A stretch of 64,000 bases of DNA from Candidatus Heimdallarchaeota archaeon (GCA_019056785.1 DXJV01000087.1:8295-72294), one strand, 5' to 3'. Shown: positions 34,505 to 42,876, counted from the stretch's first letter. Made by a program: numbers and translations. Notes: a model not told the origin generated them from the sequence alone.

Positions 34505-34569
34505 AGCTAAAAAGAAAGAGAAGAAAAACAATCATAGAAAATGATTTTCCTGTTTGGTTGGAAAATCAT
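34505..34569 (-). terminator. Perfect 10-bp hairpin overlapping the aminotransferase stop codon, followed by a T-rich tract
   Basis: ATGATTTTCC (34541-50) pairs with GGAAAATCAT (34560-69) across a 9-nt loop. On the - strand it is followed by TTTCTATGATTGTTTTTCTTCTCTTTCTTTTT. Confidence 0.55.
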
Positions 34570-35852
34570 CCAAGTTCGTTAGTAAGAAGCTTTCCTAAGC
34601 GTGTGATTCCTTCGTAAATCTCATCTTCTTTATTATAAGAATAGCCTAAACGCATAGAATTTGTTTTGGCTTGGGATGAGACTAACTTGCTTCCGTCTTC
34701 TTCTAAAGCCCAACCCTTTATGGGGTAAAAAGCAGCACCAGGAACAAACATAATGTCATTTGGTATTGCAACATCAATCAAGAATTGTTTGGAATTGAAC
34801 AGTTTCTCGGACTCATACCAAACAAAAAATCCACCATTTGGTTTAGTGTGTTTTCCTGCTGGAAAGGTTTCTTCGATGCCTTTTAGCATTGCTTCGGAGT
34901 TCTTTTGATATGTACGTAAACATTCAGGGAGGACCTTGTCGATATATTTCTCATAATAAATAGCCATAATCTTTTGAAGGATAGTTGGAGAGCAGAGGTC
35001 GAGATACCCTTTATCTTTTAACACCTCGTCTTTCAGACCTTTAGGCAGGACAGAATATCCCATCCGTAACACAGCAGCTTCCTTAGATGTTGTACGTAAA
35101 TAAGCAACTCGATTGTTTTCTTTATCCAATGATTTTATTGGTTTAATGGATTCTCCTTTAAATTGGATTTCTTTGTATGCTTGATCTTCGATAAGAAGAA
35201 GATCATATTTTTCTGAGATATCAAATAAAGCTTTTCGGCGCGCCCATGGAAGAGTTGTTCCCTTTGGATTATCAGAATCAGGCACGACATACAAGATTTC
35301 TGGTTTCTTCCCAAACTTCTTTTCCGCTAAGGGTATTGCTTTCTCCACAAATTCAGGGATAATACCATCCAGATCAGTTGGGATGGTAACAATTTCAGCA
35401 CCCATTTTGAATGCAGGAGCAAGAAAGCCCAAATAAGCAGGGCTCGGGGTGAGAATGACATCACCAGGGTCGATCATAGTATCCAAAATAGCATACAGAG
35501 CTTGTTGGGAGCCTGCCGTTAAAACAACATCCTTCCAGCCGCTTTCTTCGTCGAGGTATAAGCCATCAATGCGTCTCATTCGGTCAGCTAATACGCGCAA
35601 ACAAAATTCTTGCCCTCCAGTCGGCCCATAGTTCCATAATGAGATGGCTTTTCCGTATCTTCCTTCGTCGTAATCACGCTTATTTTCTTCACTGATTTCT
35701 ACCAAAATATCTGATAATGTTTCAATTGGCAATGCACCTGGTAAGCCACCACCGAAATTCCACTTCACTTTGTATTCTAAAAGAGCTCTAATTTCAGATG
35801 GGGGTAACAGCTTCGTCCATATCGCAAAATCAAATCGGTTGTTTTTAGTCAT
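34566..35852 (-). CDS. Class I/II PLP-dependent aminotransferase
   Basis: 428 aa. It has PxxYxG, SDNPKGT (N-P-x-G) and the PLP-lysine region TTSKEAAVLRMGY (S-x-S-K...R-x-G-Y pattern). Confidence 0.85.
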   Translation of the reverse strand: MTKNNRFDFAIWTKLLPPSEIRALLEYKVKWNFGGGLPGALPIETLSDILVEISEENKRDYDEGRYGKAISLWNYGPTGGQEFCLRVLADRMRRIDGLYLDEESGWKDVVLTAGSQQALYAILDTMIDPGDVILTPSPAYLGFLAPAFKMGAEIVTIPTDLDGIIPEFVEKAIPLAEKKFGKKPEILYVVPDSDNPKGTTLPWARRKALFDISEKYDLLLIEDQAYKEIQFKGESIKPIKSLDKENNRVAYLRTTSKEAAVLRMGYSVLPKGLKDEVLKDKGYLDLCSPTILQKIMAIYYEKYIDKVLPECLRTYQKNSEAMLKGIEETFPAGKHTKPNGGFFVWYESEKLFNSKQFLIDVAIPNDIMFVPGAAFYPIKGWALEEDGSKLVSSQAKTNSMRLGYSYNKEDEIYEGITRLGKLLTNELG

Positions 35853-36010
35853 GATTTTTTCAACCTGTTAATTGGTGATAACTTTCTAAGTAAATTATAA
35901 CCTTCAATTTTTGATTCTAATTTTTTAAACATATACTTCTCAAGAGAGTTAAGATTAACCCTTTAAAAAAATGTTGATTATTAAGAATTAAAAGAATTTT
36001 GTAAGAAAAA

Positions 36011-36040
36011 TAAGTAAAAAACGGCACAGAGATTAGCCGT
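36011..36040 (-). terminator. Hairpin plus T-runs downstream of atpK
   Basis: ACGGC-10 nt-GCCGT (36021-36040). On the - strand it is followed by TTTTTACTTATTTTTC. Confidence 0.5.
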
Positions 36041-36113
36041 CTTTAGAGTGCACTTGGTTATTGGGTGTTGGTTTATTGAGCAGCCTTCATGCATTCAACT
36101 TCGAATCTAGATT

Positions 36114-36389
36114 TTAAGAGATATTTCCTACCAATACAAATGCAATAACAAATCCATAAATGGCAATAGCTTCAATTAATGCCAAAAGGACAAGCATTTT
36201 TCCAAAGGATTCTGGCTTTTCGACAATGGCAGCAGCAGCAGATGCAGCAGCCGTTCCAAGACCTAACGCAGCACCAATGCCGGTCAGTCCAATCGCTAAC
36301 CCAGCACCAAGCGCAATGAGACCTGATTCTGACTCCGCGAGGATGGAGAAATCTGCTCCGGGTGCTCCACCGCTAAAAGCTACAACCAC
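36114..36389 (-). CDS. atpK: A-type ATP synthase subunit K (proteolipid c subunit, single hairpin)
   Basis: Two TM helices with a G/A-rich helix 1 (GLAIGLTGIGAALGLG). The ion-binding Glu is in helix 2 (LLALIEAIAIYGF). The GTG start has no SD; the frame stays open upstream to a strong GGAGGT (36478-36483), see findings. Confidence 0.85.
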   Translation of the reverse strand: MVVAFSGGAPGADFSILAESESGLIALGAGLAIGLTGIGAALGLGTAAASAAAAIVEKPESFGKMLVLLALIEAIAIYGFVIAFVLVGNIS

Positions 36390-36550
36390 TCTAACGATGG
36401 CAGTAATACCAATTGCGATGACTACTACTTGAATTGCAATAAAGATCTTTTTTGCTATTGATAATTGAATGTTAGTTACCTCCTTAGGGGGGAATTTACT
36501 ATATAGCGAATAGACTTTTCATAAAGGGTTTTTAATCTTTACGAAAATTC

Positions 36551-37633
36551 TCACAGTAAGATGATTTTATCAAGAATTTCCTCAGATGCTTTATCATGTA
36601 TTTTACCCAAGATTATCGTACGAAGATTTCGAATTTCTATTTCCTTCAAAAAGAAGAAAGCGGGATAGATGGTTATATTAAAACTTGCACCTCTGAAAAT
36701 CGAATTAGCAATATGAACGATATGTTGATCAGCATATAAGTCGAAATTAGCGAGAGGAGTTAAACCAGTTTCAAGATTTGTGATGAGACGATTAGCGAGG
36801 TCCTTGAAAGCAGTTTCCTCTTTTATGAGTTTGAATGTCTCTTCAAAATCTTGTGCAGCGAGGAAACGCTCAAGCAATTGTTGTGAGAGAGGACAAAATT
36901 GAGTATAGATAAGCCATTTTTTGACCATAGCCGGTTGGATTCCAAAGGCTTTTGATCGCAGAATAATCTCCAAATTTTGAATGCCGATTTGTGCCTCAAA
37001 GAATCTTTTAGCTGATCGGTAATCTGCTCCCTTTAGGGATTGCAGTGTGTTACAAAGGGAATCATAATAAAATTGGTCGATAGCAATGATAAGTGGATAA
37101 ACAATATCCAGATAGCGATATTCTCCAATGACTTTTTCTAATGCAGAACGAAGAGCGGGATTTTCTAAACGGGAAATTAAATCTGGAATGTCTTTTGCTG
37201 CAAATAAGCTCTCTGTTTGGCGATTTTCTTCCTCCGATAGGCTGATAAGCATTCCTCTGGCATCTTCAAACCGATTTGCCCCGTAAAGACCCGAAAGTAT
37301 GACTTTTATGTTGTTTAAAAAGAAACGAGAACCAAAAGCGGTAATAAATTGTTGGGAGCGAGGGGGAACGAATTTCCGAAAACTGTTAAATTGATCAACA
37401 AAGTTTTGAGTTAGACGCCGGTCAATTTCAATTAGATTCGGGTAATCTTTAACCATTTCCGAGCCAATTATCTCATGATAGTTTGTTTGCGCAAGCATCT
37501 GGCGAAGATTGTTAAGATCAGTAGCGCTTGCCAAAAGGTTGTATGTACCTGCAGAAAAGAGCATAGTACGTTGTGAGCGCATATAAACATTTAGAGGACC
37601 ATAATCTCGAGCATTTTTAAACATCGTCTTCAT
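36551..37633 (-). CDS. atpC: A-type ATP synthase subunit C (V-ATPase d-subunit homologue)
   Basis: 360 aa, all-helical. The N-terminus YGPLNVYMRSQRTMLFSAGTYNLL...LAQTNYHEIIG resembles the Y.y..aR.ra....L....Y..L....T.Y start of archaeal AtpC. Adjacent to atpK. Confidence 0.75.
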   Translation of the reverse strand: MKTMFKNARDYGPLNVYMRSQRTMLFSAGTYNLLASATDLNNLRQMLAQTNYHEIIGSEMVKDYPNLIEIDRRLTQNFVDQFNSFRKFVPPRSQQFITAFGSRFFLNNIKVILSGLYGANRFEDARGMLISLSEEENRQTESLFAAKDIPDLISRLENPALRSALEKVIGEYRYLDIVYPLIIAIDQFYYDSLCNTLQSLKGADYRSAKRFFEAQIGIQNLEIILRSKAFGIQPAMVKKWLIYTQFCPLSQQLLERFLAAQDFEETFKLIKEETAFKDLANRLITNLETGLTPLANFDLYADQHIVHIANSIFRGASFNITIYPAFFFLKEIEIRNLRTIILGKIHDKASEEILDKIILL

Positions 37634-37761
37634 CTCTCGAATAATTTGAAGAGTTATCCAGATAAAACATTTTTTAAAGCTTCATCTGAAAATGACTCAA
37701 CAGTTTAAAAAAAGAGCTGATTTATAATTCTTTTTGCTCATATCAGTAAAAAGCATTAATT

Positions 37762-37800
37762 GAAAAAAAGAGGGGAAAAGAATTCAACACTTGAATTCTT
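37762..37800 (-). terminator. Perfect 10-bp hairpin plus T7 run terminating the GTPase/membrane-protein unit
   Basis: AAGAATTCAA-cac-TTGAATTCTT (37778-37800). On the - strand it is followed by TTCCCCTCTTTTTTTC. Confidence 0.6.
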
Positions 37801-37916
37801 ATTGATGACATTCACTACTTCTCAACAATTTCGACGACTTCTTTCTTTTTCTTGGAAAAAGAAGAGGCGATGGATTCCATTGTTGCAGTTATTTCCTTGC
37901 TCATCTGCTTGACAAT

Positions 37917-38699
37917 TCACGCTTTGCCATGGATACGTCGTTTCAACCGATCTGGTAGTATCCATCCAAAGTAATCAATAATAATACTAATACTCGCTGT
38001 GATTCCCCGTAAGGTATGAACTAAACCGACCACAACGGGGATTTGGTGCATATTAGGCATTATATAAAAACTCGAAATCAACGATAATGTCATAATGAGT
38101 ACAACCGGTGCCAAGATATAGGTGAATCCTTTTCTTGCCACAGGGTTTTCAACATCACGTTGAATGCAGATGAGTCTGAAAACGATTTGTACATGGATTA
38201 ATGAAAAGACAGGCAAATAAATGGCTAAGCCATAAATTATTTGAGGTAAATAGAGGACAATTTCCACGCCCGCTAGAATGAATTTTTGATAAAACCGAGG
38301 ATTCGGAACATCAAACATTATTTCTGCGGCCATTAAGGTAATGAAAATCGAGATAACAGCTGTTAAAAATACAGTTGTCATAGCACGAGCGAAATCCTTG
38401 TCCTGTAAAATGTGGCGATTAGAAAAGTAGTAGAAGATGTAAGCAAGAGAATAAAAGAAGGTATACGAAAGAATGAGATACCCCACCCAATGGCTGTCGC
38501 CCTGGTAGAAATAAAGTGTTTCACTTAAAGCCGTGGCAATTTCACCAAAAGCAACAAATAGAAAGCTAATGGTCAACAATAAAGTACCAAGAGTTTTTTT
38601 CTTTAAAAATTGTCGGAACAACAAAAACACGAAAGCAAGTGCAAGAAGCGAAGCAAGATAGGAAATAATCAAAAAATACCATGTGAAAGCTAATCCCAT
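37917..38699 (-). CDS. Polytopic membrane protein (7-8 TM), translationally coupled to the Arf-like GTPase
   Basis: 260 aa. Hydrophobic helices lie at about residues 3-28, 36-58, 70-92, 105-127, 138-178 (one long helix or two), 191-214 and 221-247. The C-terminus is basic (RLKRRIHGKA). The ATG is 3 nt after the GTPase stop, with GGAGGT 7 nt upstream. Confidence 0.7.
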   Translation of the reverse strand: MGLAFTWYFLIISYLASLLALAFVFLLFRQFLKKKTLGTLLLTISFLFVAFGEIATALSETLYFYQGDSHWVGYLILSYTFFYSLAYIFYYFSNRHILQDKDFARAMTTVFLTAVISIFITLMAAEIMFDVPNPRFYQKFILAGVEIVLYLPQIIYGLAIYLPVFSLIHVQIVFRLICIQRDVENPVARKGFTYILAPVVLIMTLSLISSFYIMPNMHQIPVVVGLVHTLRGITASISIIIDYFGWILPDRLKRRIHGKA

Positions 38700-38702
38700 A
38701 GC

Positions 38703-39191
38703 TTAGACCTCCTTTAGCATTTTAATGAACCATGAAAATGAATCATATACACCTTCGCCGGTTCTTGCAGAAGTGGGGAAGCAAGCCCAGGTAATCGGTA
38801 AATCGATATCCATGAGACCGAATTCTTCGATGAATTCTTTTCGAGAAAGACTATTAGGTAAGTCAACTTTATTTAGCAAGATTAACACAGGTGTTTCTTC
38901 GTTGATTTGTGTGTTAAGAATGTTGTAGAAAATTTCTTTCGCTTCTGCCAAGCGAACAACATCTGTACTATCAACCACAAACACAAGAGCATCTGACTTT
39001 TCATTAATTTGATTCCAAAGTCCTCGAAAGTCTTCCTGACCACCAAGATCAAAAACATTTAAACGCAATTTTGGAAAATTAATTGTTTCACGATTTACCC
39101 CCATTGTTGGGATAGTTTCGATAAATTCACCTTTTACCAAATAATTTAGTAGAGTGGTTTTTCCGGCTTTGTCTAAGCCACAAATAGTCAT
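38703..39191 (-). CDS. Arf/Arl/Sar-family small GTPase (no N-terminal amphipathic helix)
   Basis: G1 is GLDKAGKT (Arf: GLDAAGKT). Switch I is TIPTMGVNRET (Arf: TIPTIGFNVET). G3 is FDLGGQEDFRGLW (Arf: WDVGGQDKIRPLW). Also FVVDSTD, G4 NKVDLPN and G5 TSARTGEGV. Length 162 aa. Confidence 0.9.
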   Translation of the reverse strand: MTICGLDKAGKTTLLNYLVKGEFIETIPTMGVNRETINFPKLRLNVFDLGGQEDFRGLWNQINEKSDALVFVVDSTDVVRLAEAKEIFYNILNTQINEETPVLILLNKVDLPNSLSRKEFIEEFGLMDIDLPITWACFPTSARTGEGVYDSFSWFIKMLKEV

Positions 39192-39220
39192 ATTTACTTG
39201 TTTTGTCTACTTTTAAAGAG

Positions 39221-39234
39221 TTTTTATAAAAAAA
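39221..39234 (-). promoter_or_regulatory. TATA-like box upstream of the GTPase gene
   Basis: The - strand reads GTCTTTTTTTATAAAAACTC, about 30-43 nt upstream of the GTPase ATG (39189-39191). Confidence 0.35.
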
Positions 39235-39284
39235 GACATTTCTCAAATCACCTTGATTATTAAAAATATTAGGGGATACAATTT

Positions 39285-39695
39285 CTACCATAAGTCTTCT
39301 GCAAGTGATTTAGCTACTCGTTTGCCATTTGATTCCGCTTTATCCTTCTCTTCTTCAATTTTAACCTCAATGGTGGTCACAAAGCCAATTTTTATCTTGA
39401 TGGTCTTTGACCCAAAGGCATTATAGATTGACGGCAAGATTTGTTGAAGAAGCTCAAGAAAGATTGCATCATTATTTTGCAACTCGGAAATAATAATGGA
39501 AAACAATTTTCGTACACTTTGGATATTATAATCGCTATTATCAAATACCACCACTAAAGAAGCGATATTATTACACTCGGTTTGGGAAGGAATGATAAAA
39601 ACATAGCCCGAGATTGCGCTACCGTTATTCATTACATTAGAAGTAAAATCGCCTGCCTTTGCACCGAAAGGCATAACTCTTAATAGTATTCTCAT
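39285..39695 (-). CDS. Hypothetical soluble protein (136 aa) immediately upstream of the GTPase gene
   Basis: Clean ORF on the same strand, 93 nt from the GTPase gene. Alternating beta/alpha-looking segments and an acidic-then-basic C-terminus. No motif recognised. Confidence 0.55.
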   Translation of the reverse strand: MRILLRVMPFGAKAGDFTSNVMNNGSAISGYVFIIPSQTECNNIASLVVVFDNSDYNIQSVRKLFSIIISELQNNDAIFLELLQQILPSIYNAFGSKTIKIKIGFVTTIEVKIEEEKDKAESNGKRVAKSLAEDLW

Positions 39696-40059
39696 TTTTT
39701 AATGGCTGAGGTAAAATATCAGGGTAAACCTTAATGAGCTCCAAGCCATTTTTTCACATTTGAACTAAACAGACACTCACAGGTTTAATTTTGCTCACCT
39801 AGAAAGTAAATGTTAGAAACTTCTTGAAAAGTAATATAAGTCTTTCACTTTAGGAAAATTTGAAAAAAAAAGTTCGGCTAAATAGGATTTTTTTTCAAAA
39901 AACAAGAGCGGAATATTTTCGCTTTACAGCAGGGAATTAATTGGAACAAAGGAGGAACTGAGCGAGAAAACAGTTCTACATTTGAACCAATAGACATTAA
40001 AAGAAAAAAGACTATTATCAACTAAAATTGATTAAAAGTTAAAACTAAGGAAAACAAAA

Positions 40060-41508
40060 ATGACCGATGGACAAGAAATAGCCGATTTTGCTATTGACTT
40101 TGCAACAAAACAAGGAGCAAAGTATGCAGAAGCCCGCTTTGAAGAAACAATGGCTGAAGGATATACAACCAGAAACGGCGTAATGATTGGTGGAGGGAAA
40201 AAGAACTTTGCTGGCATTGGTATGCGAGTTCTCACAAAAGAAGGAATGGGTTTTTGTTCTACAGCAAAATTGGATAAGGATGAGATTAAAAAAGCAATTA
40301 AAATTGCTGTGAAAATGGCTCGAGCGAGCAGAAGGAAGGAACCTATAAAGTTCTCAGAGGAAAAAGCTGTTCAAGCTAAATGGCAAACGCCTGTAGAAGA
40401 AGCTTTTGAGGATATAGCGGATGAGGACAAAATACAATTTGTCCAGCAAATTGATAAAACATTAATGGAGCAAGAGTTTGGTTCAGCTTTGGTGACAAGA
40501 ACATTAATACTTGATTTAACTCGGAACAAGAAATATTTTACAACAAACGAGGGAACAAAAATTGAAAGTGAAAAAAGCCTTATCGCTTTCTACACGTTCA
40601 ATACTGCAAAAGGAGTGTTTGGAACCGAGCAACGATTCTATGGTCAAGCAGGAGCTATGGGTTGGGAATGGTTCAAAAAGGAGAAGATCCTCGATAAGAT
40701 TATCGAGGACAATCGTGCTCTTGTAAAAACAGCGAATCTTGCCAAAGAAGCTTCTCTCGGAGTTACCGATGTAATCGTCAGTGGCGAAGTAGCTGGAATT
40801 ATTGCTCATGAAAATTGTGGGCACCCCTCAGAAGCAGACCGCATTCTCGGGCGAGAAGGAGCTCAAGCAGGCGAGTCATTCTATATTGACCTGTTAGAGA
40901 AAGGCACTCTTGGTGAAATTCAACTTGGTTCGGAGGTGGTGACAATCATTGACGACCCCACGCTCCCAGGAGGAGCAGGTTTTTATGAATACGATGATGA
41001 AGGCGTTAAAGCTCGCCCCCGATTTCTTATTAAAAACGGTAGGCTGAATGAATTACTCTTCAATCGGGAATTTGCCGCAAAATTCAACACCCAATCAAAT
41101 GCAGCTGCCCGAGCAATAGGATATAATCGAGAACCGATCATTCGGATGGCTAACACTTATTTTGCACCGGGCAAGTTCACCCTTGAGGAATTGTTTGAAG
41201 ATGTAAAAAAGGGCTTGTATATGAAAAGCTTCACAGAATGGAATATTGATGACCGTCGCTATCAAAGTAAATACGTTGGCTTAGAAGCATATATCATTGA
41301 AAATGGTGAATTGACGGAACAAATGGTTCGACGACCAATCCTCGAGTTAACTACCAAAGGAATCTTCGGCAGTGTAGATGCAGTTTCAAAGGAAACTGAA
41401 TTTCCTTATGGAACATGCGGTAAGAGCGATCCTGCTCAGGGAGCACCATGCTGGATGGGAGGGGCCCAGCTTCGGTTACGGAACATTCGACTTGGAGGCG
41501 GAAAGTAA
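40060..41508 (+). CDS. tldD: TldD-family metalloprotease
   Basis: 482 aa with the HENCGH (H-E-x-x-x-H) zinc motif and a conserved C-terminal GxC...GG region. Followed immediately by its PmbA partner. Confidence 0.9.
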   Translation: MTDGQEIADFAIDFATKQGAKYAEARFEETMAEGYTTRNGVMIGGGKKNFAGIGMRVLTKEGMGFCSTAKLDKDEIKKAIKIAVKMARASRRKEPIKFSEEKAVQAKWQTPVEEAFEDIADEDKIQFVQQIDKTLMEQEFGSALVTRTLILDLTRNKKYFTTNEGTKIESEKSLIAFYTFNTAKGVFGTEQRFYGQAGAMGWEWFKKEKILDKIIEDNRALVKTANLAKEASLGVTDVIVSGEVAGIIAHENCGHPSEADRILGREGAQAGESFYIDLLEKGTLGEIQLGSEVVTIIDDPTLPGGAGFYEYDDEGVKARPRFLIKNGRLNELLFNREFAAKFNTQSNAAARAIGYNREPIIRMANTYFAPGKFTLEELFEDVKKGLYMKSFTEWNIDDRRYQSKYVGLEAYIIENGELTEQMVRRPILELTTKGIFGSVDAVSKETEFPYGTCGKSDPAQGAPCWMGGAQLRLRNIRLGGGK

Positions 41509-42876
41509 ATGACAGAATCAATACTTAATTTGACCCTTTCTCTTGCGCAGAAAGAAGGAGCAAAAGAAGTCATTGTACAGCACTCTTTTGGTCCGGGGTA
41601 TCAGATACGTTTTTCGAATGCTGCTATCGATATTGCTAAAAAATGGGATAACAACACCCTCGAGGTTTTCCTTGCAATTGGACAAAAAACTACTCAAATT
41701 GACATTCTTGATCCATCACCAACAAAAATTAGAGAAGCTATTCCTCGTACAATGAGATTCTTAAGGAAAATGCCTGACAGCGAGTTATATGCTGGGATGG
41801 AGGACCGCGTCTTAGCTTATCAGCAACTCGATGGACTTTATGACAAGCGTGTGGAGGGGCTGTATGAACAAGCACCGGACTTGGTGAATGGAGCCATTAA
41901 TGCTGCTCTTGCTGCAGGAGCAAAGCGTGTTGCAGGCGTCCTTTATTTCGGGAGCGAAACCGTGGAACTCCAGACAAGCTATGGGTTTACCGGAAGCTAT
42001 AAACATTCCTATTACAGATCAACCATTCGCTCTTTTGTTGATTTTGAAAGCAGCGGCCAGCAAGTGGTTGTGGGACGCGACTTAACCGATCTTGAAAAGA
42101 AGCTCACTAACGCCGGACAAAAAGCAGGCAAACTTGCAGCCATGGCGGTTGGTGGCAGACAAGGAAAGGCAGGGACTTATGATTTAATTATGAGCCCCAC
42201 AGTCGGAGCAAATGTGCTTGGTGAGATCACGAACAGCGCTAACCCCCTAATGATTCTTATGGAGATGAGCCCCTTAAAAGATCATTTTGGCGAACAGATT
42301 GCCCCTGAAAACTTGCAAGTAATAGATGATCCGCACATAAGTGAAGGCCTGGAAAGCAAACCATTTGATGTAGAAGGCACGCCCACAGCGAAAACACCGA
42401 TCATACAAAATGGTGTTTTAGTTGGAATGATCCACAATACCTCTTCCGCAAAAATAATGCAAACAGAATCAACCGGAAATTCAGCCCTTCTTGATATTGG
42501 CATGGGATCAAAAGTACTTGCGCCAGAAACAACGAATATGGTCTTCTCCAAAGGAGAGCAAACCTTTGAGGAAATAGTTGCTGACTCGCGAAAACCGACA
42601 ATTTATGTCACATCCAATTGGTACACACGATTTACCAATATGCTCGAAGGAGAATTTTCCACCATCCCCAGAGATGCTATGTTCCTTATAGAAAAAGGGG
42701 AAATCAAAAAACCCGTACGAAAACTACGACTAACTGACAATCTCCTACGAATGAGCAAAAATATTATTGCTGTTGGAAAAGATCAGAAACAAATCTTCTG
42801 GTGGGAAGTTTATACCCCAACATTCATTTCAACAATTAAAGTGGCAGATTGCAGATTAACAGCGGCCACGCAATAA
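41509..42876 (+). CDS. pmbA: PmbA/TldE-family protein (TldD partner)
   Basis: 455 aa, homologous in layout to TldD but lacking the HExxxH motif. Its start codon abuts the tldD stop. Confidence 0.8.
   Translation: MTESILNLTLSLAQKEGAKEVIVQHSFGPGYQIRFSNAAIDIAKKWDNNTLEVFLAIGQKTTQIDILDPSPTKIREAIPRTMRFLRKMPDSELYAGMEDRVLAYQQLDGLYDKRVEGLYEQAPDLVNGAINAALAAGAKRVAGVLYFGSETVELQTSYGFTGSYKHSYYRSTIRSFVDFESSGQQVVVGRDLTDLEKKLTNAGQKAGKLAAMAVGGRQGKAGTYDLIMSPTVGANVLGEITNSANPLMILMEMSPLKDHFGEQIAPENLQVIDDPHISEGLESKPFDVEGTPTAKTPIIQNGVLVGMIHNTSSAKIMQTESTGNSALLDIGMGSKVLAPETTNMVFSKGEQTFEEIVADSRKPTIYVTSNWYTRFTNMLEGEFSTIPRDAMFLIEKGEIKKPVRKLRLTDNLLRMSKNIIAVGKDQKQIFWWEVYTPTFISTIKVADCRLTAATQ

Follow-up and report, generated by a model that had tools for sequence, protein, structure and literature searches.

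Does an Arf-family GTPase of an Asgard archaeon have a dedicated partner in the membrane, encoded next to it? The question is raised by a locus in a 64,000-nt stretch of DNA from Candidatus Heimdallarchaeota archaeon (GCA_019056785.1 DXJV01000087.1:8295-72294; source lineage Gerdarchaeales within Heimdallarchaeia), hereafter the window. A sequence-only reading of this DNA had described an Arf-type GTPase gene followed by a gene for a polytopic membrane protein, the two forming a translationally coupled unit with its own promoter and terminator. Comparison with related loci indicates that the pair is probably what is left of an operon of three genes, which Heimdallarchaeia (Gerdarchaeales among them) have conserved and of which the window holds a recently degenerated version. 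The operon, here called the cassette, encodes a protein predicted to have a longin fold, the Arf GTPase, and a membrane protein predicted to have seven transmembrane (TM) helices (the 7TM protein). Positions are coordinates of the whole stretch, and the cassette genes are on the minus strand.

The elements of the pair are present as described. The GTPase open reading frame (ORF; 38703..39191, minus strand) encodes 162 aa and matches the Pfam family Arf (PF00025). Its stop codon (TAA, 38703-38705) is separated by gct, the reported 3-nt gap, from the ATG (38697-38699) of a hydrophobic ORF of 260 aa (37917..38699, minus strand). The motif GGAGGT falls within the last GTPase codons, which encode K-E-V, and downstream of the pair is a perfect 10-bp hairpin (37791-37800 pairing with 37778-37787 across a 3-nt loop) followed by seven T residues (37763-37769). 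The observation is literally correct but describes truncated remnants; the "helix-less GTPase" and the "self-contained two-gene unit" are artefacts of gene decay.

A conserved longin-Arf-7TM gene order

A third gene (39285..39798) lies directly upstream of the GTPase gene, so the GTPase-membrane pair is not a self-contained unit. The order longin, Arf GTPase, 7TM is fixed in every related locus examined that has enough flanking DNA (triads at loci L001/7/9, L002/3, L005, L006, L012, L014/15, L016, L018/19, L020/21, L022, and L023, together with damaged copies). Gene 1 encodes 150-171 aa, the GTPase gene 177-179 aa, and the membrane protein gene 280-338 aa; typical intact sizes are ~165, 178, and ~295 aa. 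The triads occur in ~11 different genomic contexts whose flanking genes are unrelated between loci, and the adjacency is maintained down to ~23-30% identity.

The genes are tightly packed. The gap between the longin and Arf genes is 13-45 nt, and that between the Arf and 7TM genes is 0-6 nt in nine of ten intact loci. The K-E-V C terminus of the GTPase (AAG GAG GTx) is conserved, and the same bases form the Shine-Dalgarno (SD) sequence of the membrane protein gene. Co-translation of the pair, which had been proposed from the window, is also likely in the orthologues. Conserved adjacency and coupling together support the earlier idea of a conserved, translationally coupled GTPase-membrane partner: a survey of gene neighborhoods, suggested as a check, found the two genes adjacent in every related locus with enough flank, and lack of conservation was not found. 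The window copy, however, is itself degenerating and would hardly serve as a working "minimal switch". The membrane partner had also been set against the roadblock or longin partners known for prokaryotic small GTPases; the cassette has both a longin protein and a membrane protein.

A close and intact relative of the window copy is locus L023 (GCA_021498085.1, contig JAIZWM010000006), which is syntenic with the window and has genes for 157, 178, and 295 aa. Both loci lie between the same neighbors, TldD/PmbA and V-ATPase subunit C.

The cassette family is rare. A word-indexed search of 5.8-billion proteins returned 10 relatives of the membrane protein, and an exhaustive profile search of 1.8 billion proteins returned 72 cluster representatives. 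All relatives with a named source are from archaeal metagenome-assembled genomes (MAGs), nearly all of them labeled Heimdallarchaeota or "Asgard group" and two labeled Thorarchaeota or Bathyarchaeia. A scan of GTDB species representatives, which do not include the window genome, yielded one locus that was already known. A search of the 64-kb window for further copies of the cassette genes was negative.

Several loci depart from a single triad. Two or more paralogous triads occur in one genome in GCA_021498085.1 (L014 and L023) and GCA_011366235.1 (P0002/P0006 and P0013/P0017). An extra, divergently transcribed Arf-family GTPase gene (L016, 3274-3783, minus strand; VIKN01000037.1) lies immediately upstream of a triad. 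In L020 (RDOD01000045.1), a second, divergent pair of longin-like (158 aa) and 7TM-like (270 aa) genes occurs at 1508-2849, 1 kb upstream of the complete triad. These two genes are separated by a 52-nt spacer with no GTPase gene between them; the longin-like protein keeps an Arg-Asp-Asn motif, and the 7TM-like protein lacks the tail and has VRH for NRH.

Decay of the window copy

Lesions were defined against the intact, syntenic L023 locus, and changes were polarized by lineage. The longin and 7TM genes of the window carry two nonsense codons and one frameshift, and the 5' end of the GTPase gene carries a nonsense codon and two frameshifts (Table 1). All of these lesions recur in L008, an independent metagenome assembly with 98.7% nucleotide identity, which has in addition another longin frameshift and a nonsense codon in the membrane protein gene (Q138*). 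The same truncated proteins are encoded on two to five contigs each, from several archives.

The pattern of substitution agrees with loss of constraint. Changes in the cassette number 25 nonsynonymous (N) and 11 synonymous (S) on the window lineage versus 5N:9S on the L023 lineage; the window changes include 14N:3S in the longin gene and, conserved residues among them, 9N:5S in the 7TM gene. Between the window and L008, the membrane protein gene shows 12N:6S (ratio of nonsynonymous to synonymous rates [dN/dS], 0.58) versus 4N:23S (dN/dS, 0.05) for PmbA (Fisher p = 0.001). No damage is seen in the genes for TldD, PmbA, CTP synthase, and V-ATPase subunit C (dN/dS, 0.03-0.06), and the flanking 3638 nt have no indels between the window and L008. 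Very probably, the window cassette is non-functional or only residually functional.

Other lineages have broken copies of their own. L013 has a frameshift in the GTPase gene and W7* in the membrane protein, and L004 has a 10-nt deletion in the longin gene, a Gln→TAA change in the GTPase gene, and a frameshift plus a TAG in the membrane protein gene. A more distant lineage (L010, 2709-3260; L011, 4445-4996) has a dead GTPase gene with the P-loop change G->V, deletion of the catalytic Gln, and two stops. In this lineage the longin and 7TM neighbors are still open, and a sister contig, L012, is intact. Counting the window clade, about 4 of some 12 lineages have a broken cassette. Long-term dN/dS between these lineages is low (0.03-0.08) and the lesions differ from lineage to lineage; the decay is therefore recent and recurrent. 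In several lineages all three genes decay jointly, which argues for functional interdependence. Redundancy among paralogues might explain why individual copies decay.

Public records annotate the remnants at 37917-39695 as ordinary genes (RLI71368-70 / RLI73777-79, MHA1879032-33), under names such as "ADP-ribosylation factor family protein" or "hypothetical protein", and proteins of the same MAG are labeled both Ca. Heimdallarchaeota and Ca. Gerdarchaeota.

Table 1. Positions of cassette features and lesions in the window
Feature	Position	Strand	Remarks
B recognition element (BRE)/TATA-like block	39831..39851	-	AAAGTGAAAG + TTATATTA; upstream of longin gene
Longin gene remnant (cassette gene 1)	39285..39798	-	homologous to 150-171-aa proteins upstream of Arf gene in all related loci
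In-frame TGA in longin gene	39754..39756	-	Gly (GGA) in intact relatives; common to L008
+1 T insertion (frameshift) in longin gene	39675..39676	-	window AAGAGTTATGCC vs AAGAG-TATGCC in L013 and L004; common to L008
TGT (Cys) for invariant Arg in longin gene	39573..39575	-	window TECNN vs L023 TERNN
SD sequence AAGGTGAT of ancestral GTPase start	39247..39254	-	start ATG 39237-39239; position conserved in L004, L013, L023
GTPase gene, ancestral extent	38703..39239	-	178 codons; N-terminal 16 codons disrupted; 162-aa core 38703..39191 intact
Helix-destroying lesion cluster in GTPase gene	39205..39234	-	+1 T in T-run 39228-39234; TAA at ancestral codon 5 (39224-39226); -1 deletion near 39205/39206
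SD sequence GGAGGT of membrane protein gene	38707..38712	-	in final GTPase codons K-E-V; same arrangement in orthologues
7TM gene, ancestral extent	37815..38699	-	294 codons in window vs 295 in L023; 3-nt deletion near 38438
Three substitutions of conserved cytoplasmic-face residues in 7TM protein	37947..38189	-	Arg172->Gln 38187-38189; Gly243->Asp 37974-37976; Trp252->Arg 37947-37949
TGA for Trp262 in 7TM gene	37917..37919	-	TGG in L023, L004, L013; invariant among close orthologues; common to L008
Hairpin and run of seven T (T7)	37763..37800	-	10-bp stem 37778-37800, T7 37763-37769; stem conserved, loops differ

The Arf GTPase and its lost helix

The Arf match scores 151.2 bits (cutoff, 22.3) over residues 3-158, and the window translation has the G motifs GLDKAGKTT, TIPTMG, DLGGQEDFRGLW, NKVD, and TSARTG. 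The best match in the PDB is the Asgard protein GerdArfR1 (8OUN; E = 2e-36), and eukaryotic Arf1 and Arf6 are also matched.

The sequence-only reading had noted that this GTPase has no N-terminal amphipathic helix. The orthologues do have one: their N terminus is a basic, amphipathic segment of 16 residues, MSFLxxLFRxRTKxVN, with a hydrophobic moment of 0.46-0.75 (0.57 for Arf1) and a net charge of +3 to +5. Within it, SFLQKLFRSR aligns with SFLQRLFRQK of GerdArfR1, a helix that is resolved in the GDP-bound crystal structure 8OUN. The window copy has lost the helix by mutation (a TAA and +1/-1 frameshifts), so that MSFFIKTL*K*TKQVN-MTICGLD stands against MSFLQKLFRSRTKQVN-MTICGLD in L023. The TAA at 39224-39226 is common to L013, and the whole lesion cluster is identical in L008. 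The ATG taken earlier as the GTPase start (39189-39191) lacks an SD sequence and is an internal codon for Met, with Leu or Ile in L005, L012, L014, and L020. The ancestral start, which has the conserved SD sequence, now terminates after eight codons. In the window the GTPase gene has lost the helix and its SD-linked start and has kept its core intact.

A longin-fold protein with an invariant arginine

The listed 136-aa ORF (39285..39695) is only the 3' part of gene 1. An AlphaFold2 model made from 33 sequences (predicted local distance difference test [pLDDT], 82) has the longin fold, beta-beta-alpha-beta-beta-beta-alpha. Its best Foldseek match is NPRL2 (E = 5e-7; template modeling score [TM-score], 0.70), and further fold matches are Npr2, NPRL3, a Lokiarchaeota roadblock-longin protein, DENND1A (TM-score 0.44), Lst4, and FLCN. 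No Pfam or NCBIfam match was found for any of the 33 members, only scattered chance matches, and the family profile retrieved nothing relevant from PDB sequences.

In the model, Arg72, which is invariant in the 33 homologues, is in the beta4-beta5 loop, one to two residues before beta5, and is a candidate arginine finger. We take NPRL2 R78 and FLCN R164 also to lie just before beta5, a positional argument from secondary structure and not from an alignment. The NPRL2 sequence was verified to have R78; an hhalign comparison of the longin profile with NPRL2 residues 1-177 was not significant, and therefore Arg72 cannot be aligned to R78. The longins of GTPase-activating proteins (GAPs) have a GP motif at the start of beta2 (PMC12290439). 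At this site the family has a nearly invariant G15-L16, with the Gly present and the Pro absent.

With its in-frame TGA, its frameshift, and a Cys codon in place of an invariant Arg, the longin gene of the window is dead.

A seven-helix membrane protein with a conserved cytoplasmic face

Orthologues of the membrane protein have 295-304 aa, and the 260-aa ORF of the window is cut by a nonsense codon. Beyond this TGA, 33 conserved codons continue in frame to a TAG at 37815-37817 and encode the tail IVKQMSKEITATMESIASSFSKKKKEVVEIVEK. Of the earlier prediction of seven to eight TM helices, the polytopic character stands and the count is seven, not eight, in an AlphaFold2 model of an intact orthologue. 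Besides these helices, the model (8 sequences; pLDDT, 75) shows a beta hairpin that links TM4 to TM5, a short helix 8 following TM7, and a disordered tail. Lys and Arg residues number 3, 3, 5, and 10 in loops 1, 3, and 5 and the C-terminal tail, and 0 in the N terminus and loops 2, 4, and 6; the topology is therefore unambiguously N-out/C-in.

In an alignment of 51 family members, all residues conserved at 85% or more are at cytoplasmic helix ends or in cytoplasmic loops, and the outer face is variable. The conserved residues are K34, G38, T39, L42, Y91, F93, R96, D101, R172, G192, Y244, G246, W247, P250, and W252, with the motifs NRH at the end of TM3 and GYxGW..PDW at the end of TM7. Of the three residues substituted in the window (Table 1), Arg172 and Trp252 are kept in 90% or more of the 51 members, and Gly243 is invariant among the eight close orthologues.

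A check proposed earlier was whether searches would place the protein in a transporter or enzyme family. They did not. Neither the membrane protein nor eight of its orthologues matched any Pfam or NCBIfam family, 7TM Pfam families included, even at E <= 10, and the 51-member profile matched no PDB sequence at E <= 10. The top 50 PDB fold matches of the 7TM model are all 7TM domains of G-protein-coupled receptors (GPCRs), with E = 6e-4 to 8e-3, TM-scores of 0.38-0.57, and root-mean-square deviations of 6-10 Å.

Probable promoter and terminator of the cassette

The TATA-like box reported at 39221-39234 exists as the string TTTTTTTATAAAAA, but it sits in former GTPase coding sequence, within the cluster of lesions that destroyed the helix. 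A unit with a TATA box of its own is not supported: the conserved promoter-like block is found upstream of the longin gene. This BRE/TATA-like block is nearly invariant in the window, L008, L023, L004, and L013, where neighboring intergenic DNA varies, and it is likely the promoter of the whole cassette. A scan for sigma-70-type promoters gave nine matches versus 7.7 expected, and this consensus is uninformative for an archaeon.

At the other end, the stem of the hairpin is conserved with a varying loop in three relatives (L023, L004, and L013), and the hairpin and its T7 run are likely the terminator of the cassette. With an RNAfold energy of -7.8 kcal/mol and z = -1.46, the hairpin is not significant by energy alone, and a terminator scan did not pick up this A/U-rich hairpin.

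A possible membrane-sited GTPase switch and its alternatives

For the intact cassette we tentatively favor the following mechanism, which is possible without being probable. The 7TM protein would be a membrane-resident activator or docking site of the GTPase, similar to a guanine nucleotide exchange factor (GEF) or receptor (compare Sec12, SLC38A9, or a GPCR). Loading with GTP would free the amphipathic helix of the GTPase to insert into the membrane, and the longin protein would turn the GTPase off through its arginine. A membrane-sited switch is suggested by the strict linkage, translational coupling, and joint decay of the genes, by the membrane-inserting helix, by the conservation of the cytoplasmic face of the 7TM protein, and by the GAP-like longin with its invariant Arg. 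Several points weigh against this mechanism or against a loss of function in the window copy. The basis of the mechanism is gene order, predicted folds, and analogy. The Foldseek scores of the 7TM protein are modest (E >= 6e-4, TM-scores of 0.38-0.57) and come from an 8-sequence alignment with a pLDDT of 75. Sequence-level similarity was found neither between the longin family and NPRL2 (hhalign) nor between the 7TM family and any PDB chain (profile), and at the site of the GP motif of GAP longins the cassette family has G-L. The GTPase core of the window copy has 2N:3S on the window lineage, all G motifs intact, and no sign of relaxed constraint, and may therefore still be used. The truncation of the 7TM protein falls ~10 residues past the PDW motif, within the natural length range of distant members.

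These last points lend some weight to the reading from which this work started, in which an Arf GTPase that lacks the helix works together with a 260-aa membrane protein, the two genes being a unit under their own promoter and the membrane protein anchoring or activating the GTPase. Consistent with such a unit, the GTPase core is intact and shows no visible drift, the SD-coupled junction with the membrane protein gene is intact, a TATA-like string lies 30-43 nt upstream of the ATG at 39191, and family members with naturally short tails exist. We nevertheless regard it as very unlikely. The Met of the GTPase ORF is internal, not conserved, and without an SD sequence, and the true SD sequence serves the ATG whose frame terminates after eight codons. 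The membrane protein gene has lost Arg172, Gly243, Trp252, and Trp262, the conspecific L008 adds Q138*, and sister lineages have lesions in the core of both genes. In addition, deletion of the equivalent helix abolished membrane binding of GerdArfR1 and HodArfR1 (10.1101/2024.02.28.582541). That the stops and frameshifts are instead errors of sequencing or assembly, or are recoded, and that the genes are intact in vivo, is almost certainly wrong. Homopolymers do hold several of the indels (the T7 run at 39228-39234 and A-runs of L004, L008, and L013). However, identical lesions occur in an independent contig, the truncated proteins come from several archives, seven lesions across the relatives are base substitutions that create stops, and the cassette alone carries lesions, with no indel in 3.6 kb next to it; sequencing error was rejected on these grounds. 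An alternative genetic code or selenocysteine was likewise rejected: the window is not otherwise fragmented and uses all three stop codons normally (TAA 32, TAG 11, TGA 15), and in alignments the TGAs stand opposite Gly and Trp rather than Cys or selenocysteine. The nonsense codons are also accompanied by an excess of nonsynonymous changes at invariant residues.

Other alternatives concern the roles of the proteins in the intact cassette. The roles could be swapped, with the longin protein as a GEF or effector (as in DENN, TRAPP, Mon1-Ccz1, and the SRX domain of SR-alpha) and the 7TM protein as a regulated effector, such as a gated channel or transporter, or as a passive anchor. Most longin-domain regulators are GEFs (PMC12290439), the longin family lacks the Pro of the GP motif, DENND1A and Lst4 are among its fold matches, and L020 has a longin-7TM pair without an intervening GTPase gene. 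Against this, the best fold matches are the GAP subunits NPRL2 and Npr2 (TM-score 0.70 versus 0.44 for DENND1A). The invariant Arg is also just before beta5, the position that we assign to NPRL2 R78 and FLCN R164 from secondary structure rather than from an alignment. Few conserved polar residues are present in the membrane core of the 7TM protein, which argues against a channel or transporter. On balance we consider swapped roles doubtful, though worth keeping in view. A stronger form of the favored mechanism, in which the intact cassette would be a prokaryotic receptor-G protein module with a GPCR-like 7TM protein as GEF or receptor and an NPRL2/FLCN-like longin as GAP, draws on predicted folds and analogy and seems to us unlikely. 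Finally, operons can combine unrelated functions, and since the partnership is deduced from genomic context, the membrane protein could have nothing to do with the GTPase and be, for instance, a transporter or enzyme that shares the operon. This is highly improbable given an adjacency kept to ~23-30% identity in ~11 unrelated contexts, the translational coupling and joint decay of the genes, the concentration of conservation on the cytoplasmic surface, and the absence of Pfam, NCBIfam, or PDB sequence matches.

Comparison with known systems

The cassette GTPase belongs to the Arf family and to the same archaeal class as the described Asgard ArfR/AArf proteins (GerdArfR1, PDB 8OUN/8OUM; HodArfR1; Heim12F4_9-5). 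It shares with them the absence of Gly2 and the motifs GLDxAGKTT and DLGGQ...W, and the N-terminal helix SFLQ(K/R)LFR aligns with that of GerdArfR1. It differs from them as a distinct paralogue, with TICGLDKAGKTT, NKVD, and the C-terminal KEV, and the window copy has lost the helix. In yeast, GerdArfR1 needs its helix to bind membranes (preprint 10.1101/2024.02.28.582541).

The combination of an NPRL2-like longin, a small GTPase, and a polytopic membrane protein resembles the lysosomal GATOR1 (NPRL2)-Rag-SLC38A9 system, and also FLCN-FNIP and C9orf72-SMCR8 (an Arf GAP); the invariant Arg placed just before beta5 of the longin domain may be a further, positional likeness. In contrast, the cassette GTPase is of the Arf and not the Rag type, the longin protein consists of one 165-aa domain that lacks both the DENN or C-terminal parts and the Pro of the GP motif, the membrane protein has seven TM helices rather than being an 11-TM amino-acid transporter, and no sequence homology was detected.

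Like GPCRs, the 7TM protein is predicted to be N-out/C-in, with a TM4-TM5 beta hairpin and, past TM7, an amphipathic helix; its conserved residues sit where TM3 (NRH), TM5/6, and TM7 reach the cytoplasm. The partner GTPase is of the Arf/G-alpha type, and its switch II has DxGGQ. G-alpha is thought to have arisen from the Arf family. Unlike GPCRs, the cassette 7TM protein has no DRY, NPxxY, or CWxP and no sequence or profile similarity to them, and the TM-scores are only 0.38-0.57; unlike G-alpha, the GTPase has no helical insertion domain and no beta/gamma subunits. The 7TM protein is not proven to be homologous to GPCRs, and 7TM bundles may plausibly have converged.

In Sec12-Sar1 and Sys1-Arfrp1/Arl3p, a membrane protein sets the site of activation of an Arf-family GTPase with an amphipathic helix, as may be the case here. 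However, the single-pass beta-propeller Sec12 and the four-TM-helix protein Sys1 both differ in fold from the predicted 7TM protein, and unlike the cassette proteins neither is encoded beside its own GTPase. MglA-MglB and other prokaryotic GTPase/roadblock operons have a small Ras-superfamily GTPase beside a GAP of the roadblock/longin superfamily. The cassette differs from these in an Arf-type GTPase with an amphipathic helix, a longin instead of a roadblock protein, and a strictly linked 7TM gene.

Published work on Asgard Arf GTPases makes no mention of operons, neighbors, or membrane partners. Native regulators of Asgard Arf GTPases are not established, and a structural search of 52 predicted Asgard proteomes gave no convincing candidate (PMC11914678). 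Whether ArfR or Rag GTPases partner the GAP-like longins of Heimdallarchaeia has been posed as a question (PMC12290439). In MK-D1, GTPases are generally outside operons with longin or roadblock genes, so that partners cannot be read from genome layout (PMC10933270). The cassette is a counter-example to the MK-D1 layout: here an ArfR subfamily invariably has a single longin gene and a single 7TM gene as neighbors. It nominates two specific, clonable candidate regulators of an Asgard Arf GTPase. Full-text literature searches found no description of a longin-Arf-7TM triad, and the intact cassette appears to be undescribed before. If the receptor-G protein module were true, an Asgard Arf GTPase would for the first time have native regulators assigned to it. 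The module would belong to the archaeal class closest to eukaryotes and could be a precursor, or else an analogue, of GPCR-G-alpha and Rag-GATOR signaling. Some caution is needed in the choice of material: the window copy misled by suggesting an Arf GTPase without the helix, and with remnants appearing as ordinary genes in annotation, an intact orthologue (the L023 or L001 cassette) is sounder.

Flanking DNA and genes

A block TGAGCAAAAAGAATTATAAATCAGCTC at 37700-37750 (minus strand), which separates the gene for V-ATPase subunit C (36551..37633) from the cassette terminator, is nearly invariant in the window, L023, L004, and L013. It is likely an archaeal promoter for the V-ATPase genes. Subunit C is followed by a small proteolipid ORF (subunit c/K-like; 36114..36389), the only ORF in the region 35853-36550, and then by an aminotransferase-like gene (34566..35852, minus strand); the order in L023 is identical. 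Synonymous divergence between the window and L023 across 36551-42876 is 0.04 for V-ATPase subunit C, 0.11 for the membrane protein gene, 0.15 for the GTPase gene, 0.20 for PmbA, and 0.41 for TldD. This roughly ten-fold range among adjacent genes suggests recombination among related strains.

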